A stretch of DNA of 10,075 nucleotides from a virus. Its lineage: Duplodnaviria > Heunggongvirae > Uroviricota > Caudoviricetes. The notes beneath the pieces were generated by a model. The model was not told the DNA's origin and made no database searches. It saw only the letters and a list, made by a program, of their open reading frames with translations. Shown here in pieces: positions 1 through 10,075 of the stretch (its first letter is position 1; every line of letters starts with the position of its first letter). The stretch lies in the IMG/VR virus record IMGVR_UViG_2654587588_000010, positions 1 through 10,075 of that record; one strand, 5' to 3'. The translations under genes and the position numbers were made by a program.

Positions 1-2085
<2,085 letters not shown>

Positions 2086-2098
2086 CCATCAACGAAAA

Positions 2099-2118
2099 AG
2101 CCCACATCTGTGGGCTTT
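2099..2118 (+). terminator. Possible weak intrinsic terminator after the autotransporter gene
   Basis: Seen: 8-bp stem AGCCCACA / TGTGGGCT with a 3-nt loop, 14 nt after the stop codon, followed by only TTT. The short T-run makes this weak. Confidence 0.3.
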
Positions 2119-2401
2119 CATGTCACCAGGAGCCGCGGCTCCTTTGCGTATCCTTTTATGTCTCTTCACCGTCTGGTCGGCGTCCTGCTGAGACTTCTAA
2201 CTTCCTGTTTTTATTGGTGTTGTCCTTATACCGTCCAATCATGATTGGGCTGGCGGAGTTTGAATAAATATTGTATTGCTTTGATTTTTTAATGATTTTG
2301 TTTAATTCAGCTTTTGTGTGTATACCTAATCGTATACCAATGGCTGTAAGTTAATGTGAAATGAAAGCGCATTTTTACTTGGATTGATGCTATATCGTAC
2401 A

Positions 2402-2704
2402 GGAAAAAATTTTTTTTCGGAAGAACTGTTCACACTGTTCACCATTTGGTTTTCTCCTTTTATTTCAGCATGATAGGTGGTGAATAATGGGTGAAGGGTG
2501 AACATTCGATTCTTCACCTCCGGCATTCTGCCGGTGTGACTCATACCGGTGATTAATCCCCCGTACTGAAATCACACAGGGAGAAAAAAGTTTTTTTTTG
2601 ATTTGATTGTTCACACTGTTCACCTTTCATTTTTCTCTTTTAATTTCAGTATGATAACGGGTGAATACACGGTGAAGGGTGAACAGTGGATTGTTCACCT
2701 TCGG
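2402..2704. repeat. crr-like cis replication region: two direct repeats of about 122 bp at a 180-bp period, each carrying TGTTCAC-type iterons
   Basis: Seen: 2402-2522 and 2582-2704 align nearly base for base, each with TGTTCACACTGTTCACC, GGTGAA, GGTGAAGGGTGAAC and TTCACC motifs. Established (from memory): P4 crr is two 120-bp direct repeats with type I iterons bound by alpha, next to the 3' end of the alpha gene. Confidence 0.6.
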
Positions 2705-2717
2705 GGAATTCAGGGAT

Positions 2718-2742
2718 AAAAAAAGACCGGCAGATGCCGGTC
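2718..2742 (-). terminator. Rho-independent terminator of the leftward alpha operon
   Basis: Seen: minus-strand hairpin GACCGGCATCTGCCGGTC (plus 2725-2742) followed immediately by a 7-nt U-run (plus 2718-2724), 17 nt after the alpha stop codon at 2759-2761. Confidence 0.5.
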
Positions 2743-2758
2743 AGATGAGTCATGAGGG

Positions 2759-5092
2759 TCAGGTTGTTGCAGGGTCGTCACATTTTGGCAGCCAGTCGCC
2801 GTAGCTTTCCTCTTTCAGCGTCAGGTTGGTCTGTATCCCCTGTTTGGTATGGCGCTTCTCGTAATTCAGTCCGTATTCCTTCAGCATCACCGGCAGCCCC
2901 AGCCCGAACATTTTCAGACTGAGTACATTCCGGTAGCCGTTTGCCTCCATGTAGGCCAGATAGGCGTGATAGAGGTATTTACGGTAATTACGCGGGATGA
3001 TACTGGCGTTCCCCATATACATGCCGCTGGTCTGCGGCAGGGTTTCCAGATAGCCGATAAAATCAAACGTCGGGTCGGCATCCCGTTTGATGTTCAGCGC
3101 CTCGTCTGAGTTCTGCTGGGACTGAAGCAGTGACCGGGCGAGCATCGGGTCGCTGAACTTCTGCATCAGGTGACGCACGATGACCGCCAGCTCGCGGGTG
3201 ATTTTGTCCTTAAGCTGCGGGTCGCGCTCCTGCGGGGCTATCTGTTCCGGGAAGTGAATAATCACCCGCCGGCGTGACACGCCGCCGCTGCGGTCGGTGA
3301 AGCGCATCGGGTTATTGTTCACGGCCAGAATCACCGCCGGGATGTGCGTGGAGTACGCATCCCGGTATTTCGGGTCAACGGACACCGCATCGCCGCCGGT
3401 GATGGCCTTGAGTCCGGCACCGTCGCCGCTCCATTTTTCCTGGTCCGGCAGGCGTATCAGTGAGAAGCCAGTTAACGCGGCACGTTCACGCGGGGATTCC
3501 AGCGTCTCGATGGTGGCCGACGTGGCGTTATCCTCCCCGGCCAGCAGGGTGGCGATTTCGGCCATGATACTTTTGCCGCTGCCGCCGGGACCGGTCACCT
3601 CCAGAAAGAGCTGCCAGTCGTAGCGGTTTGCCAGCACCATAAACAGTGCGGCCAGAATCACGTCGCGTTTTTCCGCACGACCACCGGCGGCACGGTCAAG
3701 CCAGCGCCAGAACGCGGGAGCGTGGGTTTCCAGCGTTTCCCCTTCCACCGGCGGGGTGAAATCCACATCGCACAGGGTACGCATCCAGTGTGACGGACTG
3801 TGCGGGTGGAACGTGCCGTTCTGCGTGTCGGGCACGCCGTTACGAAAGCCAATCAGGCGGCGGGAGGGGGCTTCCTGCTGCGGAATAATCAGCTTCAGGG
3901 TGTCCACCACGGAGGCCACCTTCCCGGAGGAGAACGGCGCACGCAGACGCTGAAACAGCCCGGCCACATCCCGGGCAAAGTCCTGTGGCGGCAGCACCTT
4001 CCAGACACCATTTTCATAACGGGACAGAAGCTGGCCGTTGGCATCGACCGCGAGCGCCTCGCCGTAATGCTCATAGATACGCATGGCCTTTTCGCTGGTA
4101 CTCATGGCGGAAAACTCCGCTTCACTCATGGTGTCGAACGGGCTTTCAGCCGGTGGCCGGATGGCATCGTAAATGGCCTTACGGGTGGCCTCCCCGCCGT
4201 ACTGCGTGAAGGCATCATTCCAGTCACCGAAGACCGGTGGCAGGGCAACAACACCTTCACACGCATCTGCGGCTGCGGCGGCTTTTTTCTGGCCGTCACC
4301 GCTGAGGTCACGGTCAGCAGCAAGGACAATCTGACAGGCCGGATGCTTCTGCCGGGCAAGGCTGGCCAGAGAAAGGAGGTTCACGGAAGAAAGCGCCACC
4401 ATCACCGTTTCACCGGTCAGGTGATGTACGGTAAGTGCGGTCGCGTATCCCTCCGCTATCCACAGACGTTTTCCGGCCTGATTCTGTCCTTCAAGGGTGT
4501 GACAGGTGCCCCTGACCTGTCCGCCTTTCAGGGTGCGCTTACGGCCGTCAGCACTGATTAACTGAAGGTTAACCAGTTCGCCGCTGTCGTCATACAGTGG
4601 CACCACAAGGTCACCGGCGCGCCAGCTCACGCCACCGGCTCTGTGTGTGCCGGTCAGCATCCGGCATTCCCGGCCGGGAAAGCCCTTGCGGGTCAGGTAG
4701 GCGTTACCGGTTCCGGGACGGGTTTTCGCTATCAGGGTTTGTGCCAGTGCGGCGGCGTTCTTCCGGGCAGCGTCTGTTTCAGCACCGGCGGCAGCCGTCA
4801 CTGCCGGGTCAGCCGGGGGCAGGCTGCCGGTCACGGCAGCCACCTTTGCGGCCGCGTCGGACGGGGAGACACCAAACACCTTTTCAACCAGTTTCAGGCC
4901 GTCACCGGCACCACACTGATTGCAGTACCAGGTGCCGCGCCCCTCCCTGTCATCAAAACGGAAGCGGTCACTCCCGCCACAGACCGGACAGGGCTGATGA
5001 CGGTTCTTCAGCACCTGAATCCCCAGCGCCGGGAGAATACGCGGCCAGTGGCCGAGCGCATGGCTGACGGTGGCGGTTACGTTCATTTTCAT
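2759..5092 (-). CDS. alpha: P4 alpha-type primase-helicase replication protein (777 aa)
   Basis: Seen: N-terminal zinc-binding motif CPVCGGSDRF...WYCNQCG; Walker A GPGGSGKS in the central NTPase domain; RBS AAGGAGA 8 nt before ATG at 5092. Established: P4 alpha is a 777-aa primase, helicase and origin-binding protein. Lies next to the crr repeats as in P4. Confidence 0.9.
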   Translation of the reverse strand: MKMNVTATVSHALGHWPRILPALGIQVLKNRHQPCPVCGGSDRFRFDDREGRGTWYCNQCGAGDGLKLVEKVFGVSPSDAAAKVAAVTGSLPPADPAVTAAAGAETDAARKNAAALAQTLIAKTRPGTGNAYLTRKGFPGRECRMLTGTHRAGGVSWRAGDLVVPLYDDSGELVNLQLISADGRKRTLKGGQVRGTCHTLEGQNQAGKRLWIAEGYATALTVHHLTGETVMVALSSVNLLSLASLARQKHPACQIVLAADRDLSGDGQKKAAAAADACEGVVALPPVFGDWNDAFTQYGGEATRKAIYDAIRPPAESPFDTMSEAEFSAMSTSEKAMRIYEHYGEALAVDANGQLLSRYENGVWKVLPPQDFARDVAGLFQRLRAPFSSGKVASVVDTLKLIIPQQEAPSRRLIGFRNGVPDTQNGTFHPHSPSHWMRTLCDVDFTPPVEGETLETHAPAFWRWLDRAAGGRAEKRDVILAALFMVLANRYDWQLFLEVTGPGGSGKSIMAEIATLLAGEDNATSATIETLESPRERAALTGFSLIRLPDQEKWSGDGAGLKAITGGDAVSVDPKYRDAYSTHIPAVILAVNNNPMRFTDRSGGVSRRRVIIHFPEQIAPQERDPQLKDKITRELAVIVRHLMQKFSDPMLARSLLQSQQNSDEALNIKRDADPTFDFIGYLETLPQTSGMYMGNASIIPRNYRKYLYHAYLAYMEANGYRNVLSLKMFGLGLPVMLKEYGLNYEKRHTKQGIQTNLTLKEESYGDWLPKCDDPATT

Positions 5093-5106
5093 GGTGTTGT
5101 TCTCCT

Positions 5107-5427
5107 TCAGTGCAGTACCGGCGCTTTTATGTGACGGGCACAGAGTTCATCCATCACAACCAGCCCGAGAAAGGACAGCGACGGCGCGGCCTTCAGGGGG
5201 CCGGATTCCATTAAATCTTCCAGCAGGGCACAGGCTATCTGACGCCCTTTTTCCTCACCGTGCTGGCGCAGATAAAAGCCCTCCAGCTCAGCGGCGATGG
5301 CCGCCTCCAGTGATTCAAGGGTGAGATGCGGGTAGCGGTGCTGACGTTCGCACACGGTCAGCCAGGCACAGGCGACAGCGCGACGGTAAAGGGCAGCGCG
5401 TAAGACGGGCGGTAAGGGTGTTTTCAT
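5107..5427 (-). CDS. Small protein of the P4 left operon (106 aa), function unknown
   Basis: Seen: RBS GGGAGG 7 nt before ATG at 5427; stop TGA at 5107-5109 sits 14 nt before the alpha start, inside the alpha RBS region. Immediately upstream of alpha and co-oriented. Confidence 0.55.
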
Positions 5428-5562
5428 TTGTTTTCCTCCCTGTGACAGATGACTGCATTCCGTGCCGGTTGCATTAACTGATAAGGCATATCTGCGTCTC
5501 CTGAAGACGTGCGTATCCCTGCGCGAATACGCACATTTAATTTTTCGGGTGTCGTTTTTTAA

Positions 5563-6018
5563 TTACAGATAATTGCGGTAACTGTTATCCGGGGTGATTT
5601 CCGGGTCAGGCTCCGTGCGGGGAATTTCCCGCCATTCCCGCGCCACCGGTGCCGCCCGGCTGACCGGAACAGGGTCCTGCGGGTAAATATCCAGATATTT
5701 CTCCCGCCATTTCTGTAATTCCGGGTCTCCGGCCATTTCTTTCAGTACCGCATGCCGGTTTACGGGGCTGCGTCTGAACAGGTCAGGACGGTCACAGGTA
5801 AATTTCCGCAGAAAACGCCCCAGCGGGATATCTGTGGTGCGCCCGTCAGCGAGGATACGCACAAGGATACTGAATTTACGGCGGTACGGGTTCCAGACAA
5901 TGTCCGGGCAGCGGTACGGCATTTCCCACGGAATACCGTCTTCCAGAATGCCAACCACGGCCACATCGGGAAAACCGGCAGAACGGTAAATCTCACCGGG
6001 CTGGGGAAAATCAAACAT
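5563..6018 (-). CDS. P4 orf151-like protein (151 aa), function unknown
   Basis: Seen: RBS GGGGAGA before ATG at 6018; the start overlaps the stop of the upstream ORF (ATGTTTGA), indicating translational coupling. Established (from memory): P4 has a 151-codon ORF between epsilon and alpha. Confidence 0.6.
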   Translation of the reverse strand: MFDFPQPGEIYRSAGFPDVAVVGILEDGIPWEMPYRCPDIVWNPYRRKFSILVRILADGRTTDIPLGRFLRKFTCDRPDLFRRSPVNRHAVLKEMAGDPELQKWREKYLDIYPQDPVPVSRAAPVAREWREIPRTEPDPEITPDNSYRNYL

Positions 6019-6298
6019 GCGTCTTGTCTCCCCGGTCTTTCTGCTGGGCGAGAAAATCGCGGCACAGGCCTTTGGCTTTCAGCTCATTCAGCACAAAATC
6101 AATATCTTCATTCAGGTAGCTGAAAATATGCGGAATGTAGAGCTGATGCAGGCCGGAGAGTTCACGGTGAATCAAATCACCCCCAACAAACTGGGATACG
6201 GCGCTGGCGCGGTTGAGCTTATGGTAAGCCTCAATGCTGAGGTGTTCACGGGCGTCATGACGCGCTGAGACGGTCTGAGGGGCTTTTTTATTACGCAC
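6011..6298 (-). CDS. epsilon: Probable P4 epsilon-type derepression protein (95 aa)
   Basis: Assigned from position (directly upstream of orf151 in the left operon) and size only; no motif recognised. GTG start at 6298 overlaps the stop of the eta-like ORF (GTGCGTAA). Confidence 0.5.
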
Positions 6299-6488
6299 GG
6301 GACACCTCCATCACCGGCAGACGGGCAGCAAGGGAGAGCACATAGTCACGGACAAGGGAACGGCGGGCACTGCGTTCATCACCGGCGACGGTGCGAAGCA
6401 TGCAGATACGGGGGTGACGGTCTGCGCGACGGACAGCCGCAAACACAAAGACAAATTCAGGGTGTGAGGGGGTAAGGGTTGTAGCCAT
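6291..6488 (-). CDS. Small ORF (65 aa) at the position of P4 eta
   Basis: Seen: internal ATG at 6488 of the long 6291-6890 ORF, preceded by AGGAGG (plus 6497-6502) that overlaps the seqC-like element; stop overlaps the epsilon start. Upstream part of the long ORF rejected. Confidence 0.4.
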
Positions 6489-6499
6489 GATGGCAGCCT

Positions 6500-6540
6500 C
6501 CTTGAAGTAACAGTTACAGCTACCACTGGAGTTCCTACGC
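6500..6540 (-). promoter_or_regulatory. seqC-like antisense target: two 8-nt blocks complementary to seqB
   Basis: Seen: plus-strand CCTTGAAG (6500-6507) and GTTCCTAC (6531-6538) are reverse complements of CTTCAAGG and GTAGGAA in 6565-6586. Established: in P4, CI RNA pairs with seqA and seqC on nascent leftward transcripts to terminate transcription and block translation. Confidence 0.5.
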
Positions 6541-6545
6541 TCATG

Positions 6546-6625
6546 GGTGGTAGCCCGGACGGGGGTAGGAATACCGGCCTTCAAGGAAACCGGCCAGCCC
6601 GAAGGCTGCCCCGCCCGGACCACCA
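6546..6625 (-). ncRNA. cI: CI-type immunity RNA candidate carrying seqB; ends approximate
   Basis: Seen: GC-rich segment with long-range pairing (GGTGGT 6546-6551 with ACCACC 6619-6624; GGGCGGGG with CCCCGUCC allowing one G-U) enclosing a CAGCC-UUCG-GGCUG tetraloop hairpin and the seqB blocks at 6565-6586. Boundaries not determinable from sequence alone. Confidence 0.45.
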
Positions 6626-6721
6626 TTATCTGACAGAGGCTACGGTTTAAAAACCACAGCCAGAAAAACAGGTGTGCCGAAGCAACGACGTAAAAAAAGA
6701 CGCATGGCGCGTCATATGTCG

Positions 6722-6745
6722 CCTTGAAGTAACTCGGGTTCCTAC
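6722..6745 (-). promoter_or_regulatory. seqA-like antisense target in the early leader
   Basis: Seen: CCTTGAAG (6722-6729) and GTTCCTAC (6738-6745), the same two blocks as seqC, complementary to seqB. Confidence 0.5.
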
Positions 6746-6776
6746 GCCCGGCTGCCGATTTTGCGGCAGCGGAAAA

Positions 6777-6806
6777 ACTATATCCGCAAATGCCGGAAAA
6801 AGGCAA
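6777..6806 (-). promoter_or_regulatory. Candidate early leftward promoter (PLE-like)
   Basis: Seen on minus strand: -35 TTGCCT (plus 6801-6806), 18-nt spacer, -10 TATAGT (plus 6777-6782); predicted start near 6770, about 25 nt upstream of seqA and about 395 bp downstream of the predicted PLL start. Established (from memory): P4 PLE lies about 400 bp downstream of PLL. Confidence 0.4.
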
Positions 6807-6841
6807 GCCAGAAAAAGGGAGTTTTTGCAGAACAGGCATCA

Positions 6842-7108
6842 TCATGCGTCGTACCCCCGTTTGCGTCCGGCAATGCGCCCGGCCATCCATGCGGTGACTT
6901 CAGAGTGCAGCCAGGCCACATTTTTACCGCCAAGACTCACCTGCGGCGGAAATTCCCCCTTACGGATGAGTTCGTAGATGGTCGAGCGTGACAGGCCGCA
7001 CAGGTGCATCACTTCCGGCAGACGTAAAAAACGCTCCTGCGTGATGTCCGGCAGCGGCATCAGTGGCGTCACAGGGGCGGGAGACGGGGAAGAAAAAACA
7101 GCTTGCAT
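6842..7108 (-). CDS. vis: Vis / AlpA-family DNA-binding regulator (88 aa)
   Basis: Seen: helix-turn-helix segment [30 protein letters not shown] typical of the AlpA family; RBS GAGG before ATG at 7108; sits between the late-promoter region and the immunity module as P4 vis (orf88) does. Confidence 0.85.
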
Positions 7109-7210
7109 CGGGCTACCTCGTTAATGTCCATACAGCACCGGATAAGTCCGTCCGGCTTCGGGTAGCGCTTTATTTTGTGAATATTTTCAGCAGACGCAAC
7201 AGGGGGGATT

Positions 7211-7228
7211 TGTTCCGGCAGTCTTACA
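7211..7228 (-). promoter_or_regulatory. Ogr/Delta-type activator site (TGT-N12-ACA) of a leftward late promoter (PLL-like)
   Basis: Seen: TGTTCCGGCAGTCTTACA. Established: P2/P4 late promoters carry TGT-N12-ACA centred near -55; that places the start near 7165, 57 nt upstream of vis. Confidence 0.4.
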
Positions 7229-7386
7229 ATGGCTGTGTATTTTTTGTACATCAGCGCCAGATAGCTTTAAAACGCTCTGGAAGGAGCTGGAAAAAATTAT
7301 AGTGAAATACAAATTGTTTTTTCTTATTTATTTCAGTGAATTAATAAAAATAAAAAGTAATAAACAGCACAAAAAGCCCATCAACG

Positions 7387-7491
7387 GGTGAACAGTGGTG
7401 AACAGACGGTGAACAGTCATTACTGCGATTGTTCACCCTTTAAATTACTGTATTACTTATCTTTTTTCTTATGGTGAACAGAGGTGAACAG
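7387..7491. repeat. Origin-of-replication iteron cluster (six GGTGAACAG / TGTTCACC copies) in an AT-rich intergenic region
   Basis: Seen: GGTGAACAG at 7387-7395, 7397-7405, 7408-7416, 7473-7481 and 7483-7491, plus inverted TGTTCACC at 7430-7437, flanked by AT-rich DNA (7290-7380, 7440-7510). Same motif as in the crr repeats. Established (from memory): P4 ori consists of alpha-bound type I iterons. Confidence 0.6.
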
Positions 7492-7569
7492 TAAAATATA
7501 AAAAAACAAACAGTAAGCCGGTTTTTCCTGCGACCTTTTCCTGGCTTGCCGGTCTGAGGATGAGTCTCC

Positions 7570-7636
7570 TGTGTCAGGGCTGGCACATCTGCAATGCGTC
7601 GTGTTGTTGTCCGGTGTACGTCACAATTTTCTTAAC
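7570..7636 (+). promoter_or_regulatory. Psid-like late promoter with Ogr/Delta-type activator site
   Basis: Seen: TGT-N12-ACA at 7570-7587 (TGTGTCAGGGCTGGCACA); weak -10-like CACAAT near 7622-7627; RBS GAGGAG at 7647-7652; sid ATG at 7660. Confidence 0.45.
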
Positions 7637-7659
7637 CTGAAGTGACGAGGAGCCGGAAA

Positions 7660-8394
7660 ATGTCTGACAACACCATCCCTGAATATCTGCAACCCGCGCT
7701 GGCACAACTGGAAAAGGCCAGAGCCGCCCACCTTGAGAACGCCCGCCTGATGGATGAGACCGTCACGGCCATTGAACGGGCAGAGCAGGAAAAAAATGCG
7801 CTGGCGCAGGCCGACGGAAACGACGCTGACGACTGGCGCACGGCCTTTCGTGCAGCCGGTGGTGTCCTGAGCGACGAGCTGAAACAGCGCCACATTGAGC
7901 GCGTGGCACGCCGGGAGCTGGTACAGGAATATGACAATCTGGCCGTGGTGCTGAATTTCGAACGTGAACGCCTGAAAGGGGCGTGTGACAGCACGGCCAC
8001 CGCCTACCGGAAGGCACATCATCACCTGCTGAGTCTGTATGCAGAGCATGAGCTGGAACACGCCCTGAATGAAACCTGTGAGGCGCTTGTCCGGGCAATG
8101 CATCTGAGCATTCTGGTACAGGAAAATCCGCTCGCCAACACCACCGGGCATCAGGGCTACGTCGCACCCGATAAAGCTGTCATGCAGCAGGTGAAATCAT
8201 CGCTGGAACAGAAAATAAAACAGATGCAAATCAGCCTCACCGGCGAGCCGGTTCTCCGGCTGACCGGACTGTCAGCGGCAACACTCCCGCACATGGATTA
8301 TGAGGTGGCAGGCACACCGGCACAGCGCAAGGTGTGGCAGGACAAAATAGACCAGCAGGGAGCAGTGCTTAAGGCCAGAGGACTGCTGTCATGA
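7660..8394 (+). CDS. sid: Sid capsid size-determination (external scaffold) protein, 244 aa
   Basis: Seen: ATG at 7660 with RBS GAGGAG 7 nt upstream is preferred over the GTG at 7642 in the ORF track; stop overlaps the delta start (ATGA). Established: P4 late operon is sid-delta-psu and Sid is 244 aa (from memory). Confidence 0.85.
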   Translation: MSDNTIPEYLQPALAQLEKARAAHLENARLMDETVTAIERAEQEKNALAQADGNDADDWRTAFRAAGGVLSDELKQRHIERVARRELVQEYDNLAVVLNFERERLKGACDSTATAYRKAHHHLLSLYAEHELEHALNETCEALVRAMHLSILVQENPLANTTGHQGYVAPDKAVMQQVKSSLEQKIKQMQISLTGEPVLRLTGLSAATLPHMDYEVAGTPAQRKVWQDKIDQQGAVLKARGLLS

Positions 8395-8891
8395 TTTACT
8401 GCCCGTCGTGTGGACATGTTGCTCACACCCGCCGCGCACATTTCATGGACGATGGCACCAAGATAATGATTGCACAGTGCCGGAATATTTATTGCTCTGC
8501 GACATTTGAAGCGAGTGAAAGCTTTTTCTCTGACAGTAAAGATTCAGGAATGGAATACATTTCAGGCAAACAGAGATACCGCGATTCACTGACGTCAGCC
8601 TCCGGTAGCATGAAACGCCCGAAAAGAATGCTTGTTACCGGATATTGTTGTCGGAGATGTAAAGGCCTTGCACTGTCAAGAACATCGCGGCGTCTGTCTC
8701 AGGAAGTCACCGAGCGTTTTTATGTGTGCACGGATCCGGGCTGTGGTCTGGTGTTTAAAACGCTTCAGACCATCAACCGCTTCATTGTCCGCCCGGTCAC
8801 GCCGGACGAACTGGCAGAAAGCCTGCATGAAAAACAGGAACTGCCGCCAGTACGCTTAAAAACACAATCATATTCGCTGCGTCTGGAATGA
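8391..8891 (+). CDS. delta: Delta late-gene transcriptional activator: two tandem Ogr-like zinc-finger modules (166 aa)
   Basis: Seen: N-terminal module MIYCPSCGHVAHTRRAHF...CRNIYCSATF and a second C-x2-C...C-x4-C module CCRRCKGLA...CTDPGCGLVF. Established: P4 Delta is 166 aa and resembles a covalent dimer of P2 Ogr. Confidence 0.9.
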   Translation: MIYCPSCGHVAHTRRAHFMDDGTKIMIAQCRNIYCSATFEASESFFSDSKDSGMEYISGKQRYRDSLTSASGSMKRPKRMLVTGYCCRRCKGLALSRTSRRLSQEVTERFYVCTDPGCGLVFKTLQTINRFIVRPVTPDELAESLHEKQELPPVRLKTQSYSLRLE

Positions 8892-8964
8892 GGGCTGCCG
8901 GTTAACACCGGCCGTCGCCGCACACCGTATTTTTATTCTTCAGCATGATGAGAAAGATATAACG

Positions 8965-9207
8965 ATGGAAAGCACAGCCTTACAGCAGGCCTTTGACACC
9001 TGTCAGAATAACAAAGCAGCATGGCTGCAACGCAAAAATGAGCTGGCTGCGGCCGAACAGGAATATCTGCGGCTTCTGTCAGGAGAAGGCAGAAACGTCA
9101 GTCGCCTGGACGAATTACGCAATATTATCGAAGTCAGAAAATGGCAGGTGAATCAGGCTGAACCGCCCCGGGAATCCTGGAGACTAAACTCCCTGAGAAA
9201 GAGGTAA
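8965..9207 (+). pseudogene. psu: psu (polarity suppression / capsid decoration) truncated by IS insertion
   Basis: Seen: ORF starts MESTALQQAFDTCQNNKAAW... and switches at about codon 65 (near 9159) into IS-derived sequence, ending after 15 more codons at TAA 9205-9207. Established (from memory): P4 Psu is about 190 aa with this N-terminus. Confidence 0.7.
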
Positions 9208-9212
9208 ACAGG

Positions 9213-9539
9213 ATGACTAAAAATACACGTTTTTCCCCCGAGGTCCGTCAACGGGCAGTTCGTATGGTTCTGGAAAGTCAGGATGAATATGACTCACAGT
9301 GGGCGGCAATTTGTTCCATTGCCCCAAAGATTGGCTGTACGCCGGAGACTCTGCGTGTCTGGGTTCGCCAGCATGAGCGGGATACCGGGAGCGGTGATGG
9401 CGGACTCACCACCGCTGAACGTCAGCGTCTGAAAGAGCTGGAACGTGAAAATCGTGAACTGCGCCGCAGTAACGATATCCTTCGCCAGGCTTCCGCTTAT
9501 TTTGCGAAGGCGGAGTTCGACCGCCTCTGGAAAAAATAA
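9213..9539 (+). CDS. IS3-family transposase OrfA (108 aa, helix-turn-helix plus leucine zipper)
   Basis: Seen: [22 protein letters not shown]...[28 protein letters not shown], matching IS629-group OrfA as recalled; stop TAA at 9537-9539 overlaps the orfB ATG. Confidence 0.9.
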
Positions 9540-10075
9540 TGCCACTGCTGGATAAGCTGCGTGAGCAGTACGGGGTCGGACCGCTATGCAGCGAACTGCA
9601 TATTGCCCCGTCAACGTATTACCACTGTCAGCAACAGCGACATCATCCTGATAAACGCAGTGCCCGTGCGCAGCGCGATGACTGGCTGAAGAAAGAGATA
9701 CAGCGCGTATACGATGAAAATCATCAGGTATACGGTGTGCGTAAAGTCTGGCGCCAGTTGTTACGCGAAGGTATCAGGGTGGCCAGATGTACAGTGGCGC
9801 GCCTCATGGCGGTTATGGGACTTGCCGGTGTTCTCCGGGGTAAAAAGGTCCGTACGACCATCAGCCGGAAAGCCGTTTCCGCATGCGACCGCGTAAACCG
9901 TCAGTTCGTGGCAGAACGTCCAGACCAGTTGTGGGTGGCTGATTTTACCTGGGTAAGCACATGGCAGGGCTTCGTTTATGTGGCGTTCATCATTGATGTG
10001 TTCGCCGGATACATCGTGGGATGGCAGGTCTCATCATCCATGGAAACAACATTCGTGCTGGATGCACTGGAGCAG
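9539..10075 (+). CDS. IS3-family transposase OrfB (DDE integrase domain), 3'-partial at the window edge
   Basis: Seen: frame open from ATG 9539 to the window end (179 codons): [29 protein letters not shown]...QLWVADFTWVSTWQGFVYVAFIIDVFAGYIVGW. Missing from the ORF track because no stop codon is reached. Confidence 0.85.
   Translation, partial: MPLLDKLREQYGVGPLCSELHIAPSTYYHCQQQRHHPDKRSARAQRDDWLKKEIQRVYDENHQVYGVRKVWRQLLREGIRVARCTVARLMAVMGLAGVLRGKKVRTTISRKAVSACDRVNRQFVAERPDQLWVADFTWVSTWQGFVYVAFIIDVFAGYIVGWQVSSSMETTFVLDALEQ

Follow-up and report, generated by a model that had tools for sequence, protein, structure and literature searches.

Joining of an IS629/IS1203-type insertion sequence to psu at the end of the late operon in a P4-like satellite

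Near the right end of the DNA analysed here, a stretch of 10,075 nucleotides that we call the window, the reading frame of psu in a P4-like satellite runs into an insertion sequence (IS) of the IS3 family. The locus raises the questions of what joined the gene to the IS, what the damaged gene can still encode, and what lies on the far side of the IS. Window positions 1-10,075 are the entirety of a draft contig (JHQY01000103.1, assembly GCA_001265185.1), both ends of which lie in repeated DNA, the AIDA repeats of ypjA at the left and the IS at the right. Since the contig ends sit in repeats, the truncations at both window edges are assembly breaks, and the stop inside the IS reflects the breaking of short-read assemblies at multi-copy repeats rather than biology. 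The best explanation of the locus, to which we assign a probability of roughly 0.85, is that transposition of an IS629/IS1203-type element joined the left end of the IS to nucleotide 194 of psu, leaving an 80-aa peptide that would retain the stem alone of Psu. The features of the window are collected in Table 1.

Table 1. Features of the window around the psu/IS junction; coordinates are window positions
Feature	Position	Strand	Remarks
ypjA/ehaD autotransporter gene, damaged	1-2085		Context of the satellite
P4-like satellite prophage	about 2400-9158		crr repeats, alpha, orf106, orf151, epsilon, CI/C4 RNA region, vis/alpA, sid-delta-psu
sid, first gene of the P4-type late operon	7660-8394	+	244 aa, intact; 98.6% identity to P4 sid; gene call
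delta, Ogr/Delta zinc-finger late activator	8391-8891	+	166 aa, intact; Pfam PF04606, E = 6.9e-22
psu 5′ fragment	8965-9158	+	194 nt, codons 1-64 and two bases of codon 65
Chimeric ORF	8965-9207	+	80 aa, 65 from Psu and 15 IS-encoded; stop TAA at 9205-9207
GGC (or AGGC, 9155-9158)	9156-9158	.	Bases expected to be duplicated at the right junction if the insertion is simple; predicted from the 3-4 bp duplications of full copies and from PMC3271280
IS629/IS1203-type element of the IS3 family	9159-10075	+	Left 917 nt of a 1,310-nt element, cut by the contig end; orientation of psu
Left terminal inverted repeat	9159-9183	+	TGAACCGCCCCGGGAATCCTGGAGA
orfA	9213-9539	+	108 aa, helix-turn-helix, intact; Pfam HTH_Tnp_1, 2e-12; NCBIfam IS3 transposase profile positions 1-86
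ALIL frameshift-stimulating pseudoknot	9494-9610	+	Rfam RF01497, full length; 119 bits against a gathering score of 50, E = 3.8e-31
orfB	9539-10075	+	-1 frame relative to orfA; first 179 codons, open to the contig end; HTH_21 and start of the rve/DDE core

The satellite and its intact relative

Of the core of a P4-like satellite, the window contains intact alpha, orf106, orf151, epsilon, vis/alpA, sid and delta as well as the CI RNA, while psu is truncated; the sid-delta-psu operon context is common to the window and P4. Rfam matches for the P4 immunity RNA region fall on the minus strand at 6543-6783 (C4/CI antisense RNA, 6543-6630; isrK, 6693-6770; a1/b1 target, 6731-6783). A mechanically called ORF of 199 aa at 6291-6890 overlaps these immunity RNAs and is probably not a gene.

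An intact P4-like satellite lies between ypjA and ssrA in E. coli PSS-08-2 (NZ_AP027679.1). It is 99.6% identical to the window over positions 1600-9158, and its neighbour ypjA and its gene order are the same. Unlike the window, it has an unbroken psu of 190 aa, followed by cos, a cargo ORF of 567 aa, int and ssrA, and its ypjA is full length. A single-nucleotide deletion relative to PSS-08-2 was seen at window position 2404, at the start of the first 120-bp direct repeat of crr, which belongs to the region that P4 replication needs in cis. In this PSS-08-2 element, the closest intact relative (L004, 17761-24381), the 567-aa cargo ORF, which is uncharacterised, lies between psu/cos and int, at the known defence hotspot. 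Past the ssrA fragment of L004 there are a second integrase and a CI repressor, an arrangement that suggests tandem elements at ssrA. The cos site and int of the window satellite would be expected past the contig end, as in L004.

The neighbouring ypjA/ehaD gene differs from that of PSS-08-2 in two respects. Some 1,320 bp of the AIDA-repeat region is absent at about 1600-1609, and an additional G at 1715 shifts the frame, leaving ORFs at 270-1730 and 1759-2085. The window copy is a pseudogene relative to PSS-08-2. The deletion of AIDA repeats could be real, or it could be a collapse of repeats in the assembly.

The psu/IS junction and the insertion sequence

Megablast against phage records aligned window positions 7600-9158 to P4 positions 9523-11081 at 98.6% identity, in one ungapped piece ending at 9158. 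In the pairwise alignment P4 and the window are identical at 9080-9158 and unrelated from 9159 on, so that intact P4 psu (annotated at 10888-11460, 190 aa) parts from the window exactly where the terminal repeat of the IS starts. The break follows nucleotide 194 of psu, the second base of codon 65. At this point P4 reads ...CAG GCC GCC GGT... and the window reads ...CAG GC/T GAA CCG CCC (the slash marks the break); codon 65 becomes GCT, by coincidence still an Ala codon, and 65 native residues are thus kept. The 194 nt have one mismatch to P4 psu and none to the psu of PSS-08-2. Homology to the IS begins exactly at 9159 (TGAACCGCCCC...), at the IS3-type terminus TGAACCGCCCCGGG, with neither gap nor overlap with the P4 homology.

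Because the switch from P4 to IS falls, to the base, at the terminal TG of the IS, we attribute it to transposition rather than to a random chimeric join, and take the psu/IS junction to be biological, the product of an IS transposing into psu. The insertion is recent, since the adjoining satellite DNA is identical to that of the intact relative PSS-08-2 (zero differences over 7240-9158). The preliminary description had the psu frame meeting the terminal repeat of an IS3-family element at about 9159, after about codon 65; the position stands, and the element can now be named more closely.

The IS3 family transposes by a copy-out-paste-in route, and its two-ORF organisation was found here, with a helix-turn-helix in orfA and a DDE/rve domain in orfB, in the -1 frame and visible for only 179 codons. 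The orfB product scores 176.5 bits against NCBIfam NF033516, over profile positions 93-266 of 369. At the overlap of the two ORFs a run of six A residues (9531-9536) and the ALIL pseudoknot together make up a -1 frameshift signal.

The 917 nt of the IS in the window align from the first IS nucleotide with a 1,310-bp copy in E. coli O103:H2 12009, at 98.0% identity with 18 mismatches and no indels. That copy is flanked by TTT duplications, and its left and right inverted repeats agree at 22 of the first 25 positions; the full copies examined all terminate in the complementary right inverted repeat ...CCCGGGGCGGTTCA. The 917 nt match thousands of E. coli copies named 'IS3 family transposase' (E = 0), and the median number of places with this IS family in an E. 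coli genome is 3, the highest 52. The nearest copies found, in L005, L007 and L009, are 99.0% identical, and every copy in the 5,426 complete E. coli genomes searched differs from the window copy by ~2%. In O157, one copy is annotated by PGAP as 'IS3-like element IS1203 family'.

By the ISfinder convention, an isoform is 95% or more identical in nucleotide sequence to a named IS. Copies annotated as IS629 in Stx phages are 96.3-96.9% identical to the window copy, above this threshold in the comparison with such annotated copies. More broadly, the window copy shares with IS629/IS1203/IS3411 of E. coli and Shigella 96-98% identity over the 917 nt, the left terminus, the 0/-1 frames of orfA and orfB, and the ALIL pseudoknot; of a full IS629, the window does not contain the final 393 nt, the right inverted repeat or the duplication. 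IS1203 and IS3411 are treated as isoforms of IS629, with sub-types 4-5% apart (Rump et al., PMC3271280). IS629 prefers prophage or prophage-like DNA, where 62% of O157 copies are found (PMC3271280), and the event is therefore not unexpected, the window copy likewise sitting in prophage-type DNA. The IS3-family assignment of the preliminary description is thus narrowed to an IS629/IS1203 isoform adjoining psu at 9158/9159.

The identical OrfA protein was found in 102 blocks of the collection. An exact look-up of OrfA for a better-assembled copy of the junction returned 10 places, none of them adjoining psu. In two copies with identical OrfA (L008, 3330-6053; L012, about 3806-6113), orfB is itself broken by a gene for a group II intron reverse transcriptase (RVT_1 and GIIM).

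The far side of the IS

As proposed here, an IS629/IS1203-type copy would have transposed into psu, the last gene of the sid-delta-psu late operon, in a satellite beside ypjA in an E. coli-type chromosome. A gene that is 'interrupted' at the end of a draft contig is not resolvable from that contig alone, and two continuations have to be weighed.

After a simple insertion the IS would be complete and be followed by a duplication of 3-4 bp, psu codons 65-190, cos, the cargo gene and int. The full IS copies have target duplications of 3-4 bp (TTT, CCT, CCA, CCGC), and the same lengths are described for IS629 (PMC3271280); the predicted right junction would then read ...GGGGCGGTTCA + (A)GGC + CGCCGGTCGTTATATTCG, psu nucleotide 195 onward. 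Several searches were made for the two junctions and their products. A left-junction 30-mer and a gapped right-junction pattern had no match in GTDB representative genomes, JGI metagenomes or IMG/VR. BLAST searches of the 5,426 complete E. coli genomes with the actual left junction and with a synthetic right one gave no match that covered 80% or more. The predicted IS-psu fusion ORF had no match covering its IS-derived N-terminus among 5.8 billion protein clusters, and exact look-ups of four IS-psu fusion variants in the protein collection were negative. These junction negatives are expected, and speak neither for nor against a simple insertion, because the source assembly is outside the collections searched.

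The other continuation is an IS-mediated deletion or rearrangement. An adjacent deletion, or recombination of one IS629 copy with another, would have removed or displaced the 3′ part of psu from the right end of the IS, alone or along with cos, the cargo gene and int, and the satellite would be a decayed, non-mobilisable remnant. The DNA downstream of a contig that ends in an IS is unconstrained, the many IS places per E. coli genome offer as many recombination partners, and the right junction was found in none of the complete E. coli genomes, GTDB representatives, JGI metagenomes or IMG/VR, a result that the position of the source assembly outside the searched DNA collections would lead one to expect in any case. 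Against a deletion or rearrangement, the core genes from alpha to delta are intact and near-identical to those of a complete relative, which points to a recent event with little time for it. Since only 21 of 47 IS629 copies in O157 genomes, fewer than half, keep matching duplications (PMC3271280), we consider a simple insertion probable, by no wide measure, and a deletion or rearrangement unlikely while still to be reckoned with. 'Interrupted', the reading in the preliminary description, accordingly goes further than the contig supports, accurate as its coordinates and its account of the visible DNA are. An insertion sequence is indeed present, but 917 nt of it lie within the window, and the addition of more than 1.2 kb at the locus was not confirmed.

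It is exceedingly improbable that the assembly falsely joined psu to an IS copy from elsewhere, psu being intact in the real genome: the assembly is a short-read draft with both contig ends in repeats, but the join coincides with the first base of the inverted repeat of the IS, psu and the IS have no common sequence to seed a false join, the contig goes on for 917 nt of IS sequence that carries copy-specific SNPs, with 9-36 differences to the other copies, and the exact 80-aa chimeric protein occurs on 4 contigs, and only 4, of the public protein collection.

The Psu fragment and its consequences

The chimeric ORF stops inside the IS, upstream of the orfA start at 9213, as had been described before, so that no full-length Psu can be made from this locus. 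The first 64 codons match P4 Psu (190 aa; PDB 3RX6; Rho-Psu complexes 8PEU and others) identically in protein. In comparison with P4 Psu, the window product is cut at codon 65, has 15 IS-encoded residues appended, and is missing about two thirds of Psu, with the knot and the Rho-binding helices of the C-terminus among the absent parts. The Pfam Psu profile (PF07455) is matched at positions 1-61 of 182 only, and the full-length architecture of ~190 aa, with stem, knot and belt, is not found.

Psu is built from a coiled-coil stem at the N-terminus, a central region that forms the dimer knot, and helices 5-7 at the C-terminus (PMC3821671, PDB 3RX6); its last 20 residues are required for Rho antagonism and the remainder for structural integrity (PMC3821671). 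Of Psu, the predicted 80-aa product has the N-terminal coiled-coil stem only, without the dimerisation knot and helices 5-7. Because it keeps only the stem, the published structure and mutagenesis indicate that the peptide should neither inhibit Rho nor decorate capsids, with the probable loss of both functions of Psu.

Many 'partial' N-terminal Psu fragments, of 57-102 aa, are present in public E. coli assemblies. One of them, of 64 aa and on 10 contigs (P0130), ends exactly at Q64, the residue before the junction, and may represent this psu::IS allele where an assembly stops at the edge of the IS. The protein collection also holds a 102-aa C-terminal Psu ORF ('MQQHG...') on 30 contigs.

The preliminary description suggested further effects, on packaging into small capsids and on transcription leaving the late operon, and both are speculative. 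The P4 genome is 11.6 kb. We took the distance from ypjA to ssrA in PSS-08-2, ~11.0 kb, as the upper bound on the size of the element, a search for att repeats there having given only an 11-nt repeat, which is too weak. An element of the PSS-08-2 type (at most ~11.0 kb) with the 1.31-kb IS would thus reach at most ~12.3 kb. The capacity of P4-size capsids is ~12 kb (PMC9122126), and packaging into them with the IS might, speculatively, be borderline; it is not demonstrably prohibitive. A scan for promoters and terminators around the junction gave counts at or below shuffle expectation, and because nothing rose above that background, any effect on transcription leaving the late operon stays speculative.

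It is very improbable that the insertion does more than knock out psu. Because the IS shares the orientation of the late operon, helper-induced transcription from Psid would enter orfA and orfB, and read-through could in this way couple the IS629 transposase to P2 infection; other forms of the same idea are a truncated Psu fragment that binds Rho, or a selected loss of the Rho inhibitor that domesticates the satellite and its defence cargo.

Very improbable, too, is a new product from the right side of the IS. With a 3-bp duplication (GGC), psu codons 65-190, among them those of the Rho-binding helices, would be in frame with an IS-borne ORF. The product would be a Psu fragment with a replaced N-terminus, initiated at an ATG either 77 nt or 59 nt in from the right end of the IS and expressed by IS-borne or read-through transcription. 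The frame is open for 158-209 nt inside the right end, with ATG codons, in two different full IS copies. Yet this product depends on the predicted right junction and on a duplication of 3 bp, as with 4 bp there is no start codon; no such protein is present in a collection of 15 billion sequences, the promoter scan gave no evidence of a promoter, and the N-terminal stem and the knot are needed for structural integrity (PMC3821671).

The preferred reading, transposition of an IS629/IS1203-type element into psu, makes this a routine insertional inactivation, in which the satellite gene, the very common IS and the type of event are all known. In a survey of P4-like elements by de Sousa and Rocha, psu pseudogenes are noted in 8% of the psu-less variants, and these variants are mostly not recent losses (bioRxiv 10.1101/2021.03.30.437493). 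The window element is, like the psu-less and decaying elements of that survey, without a functional psu; unlike them, it has the cause still visible, as the end of an IS, and the event is very recent.

For annotation, psu at this locus is a pseudogene disrupted by an IS629-type element, and the late operon should not be scored as intact. If the element is otherwise complete, its genome would equal or slightly exceed what P4-size capsids can hold, ~12 kb (PMC9122126). The satellite would make capsids without Psu decoration, and would also be without the anti-Rho function of Psu; P4 particles that lack Psu are reportedly less heat-stable, according to work cited in PMC3821671.
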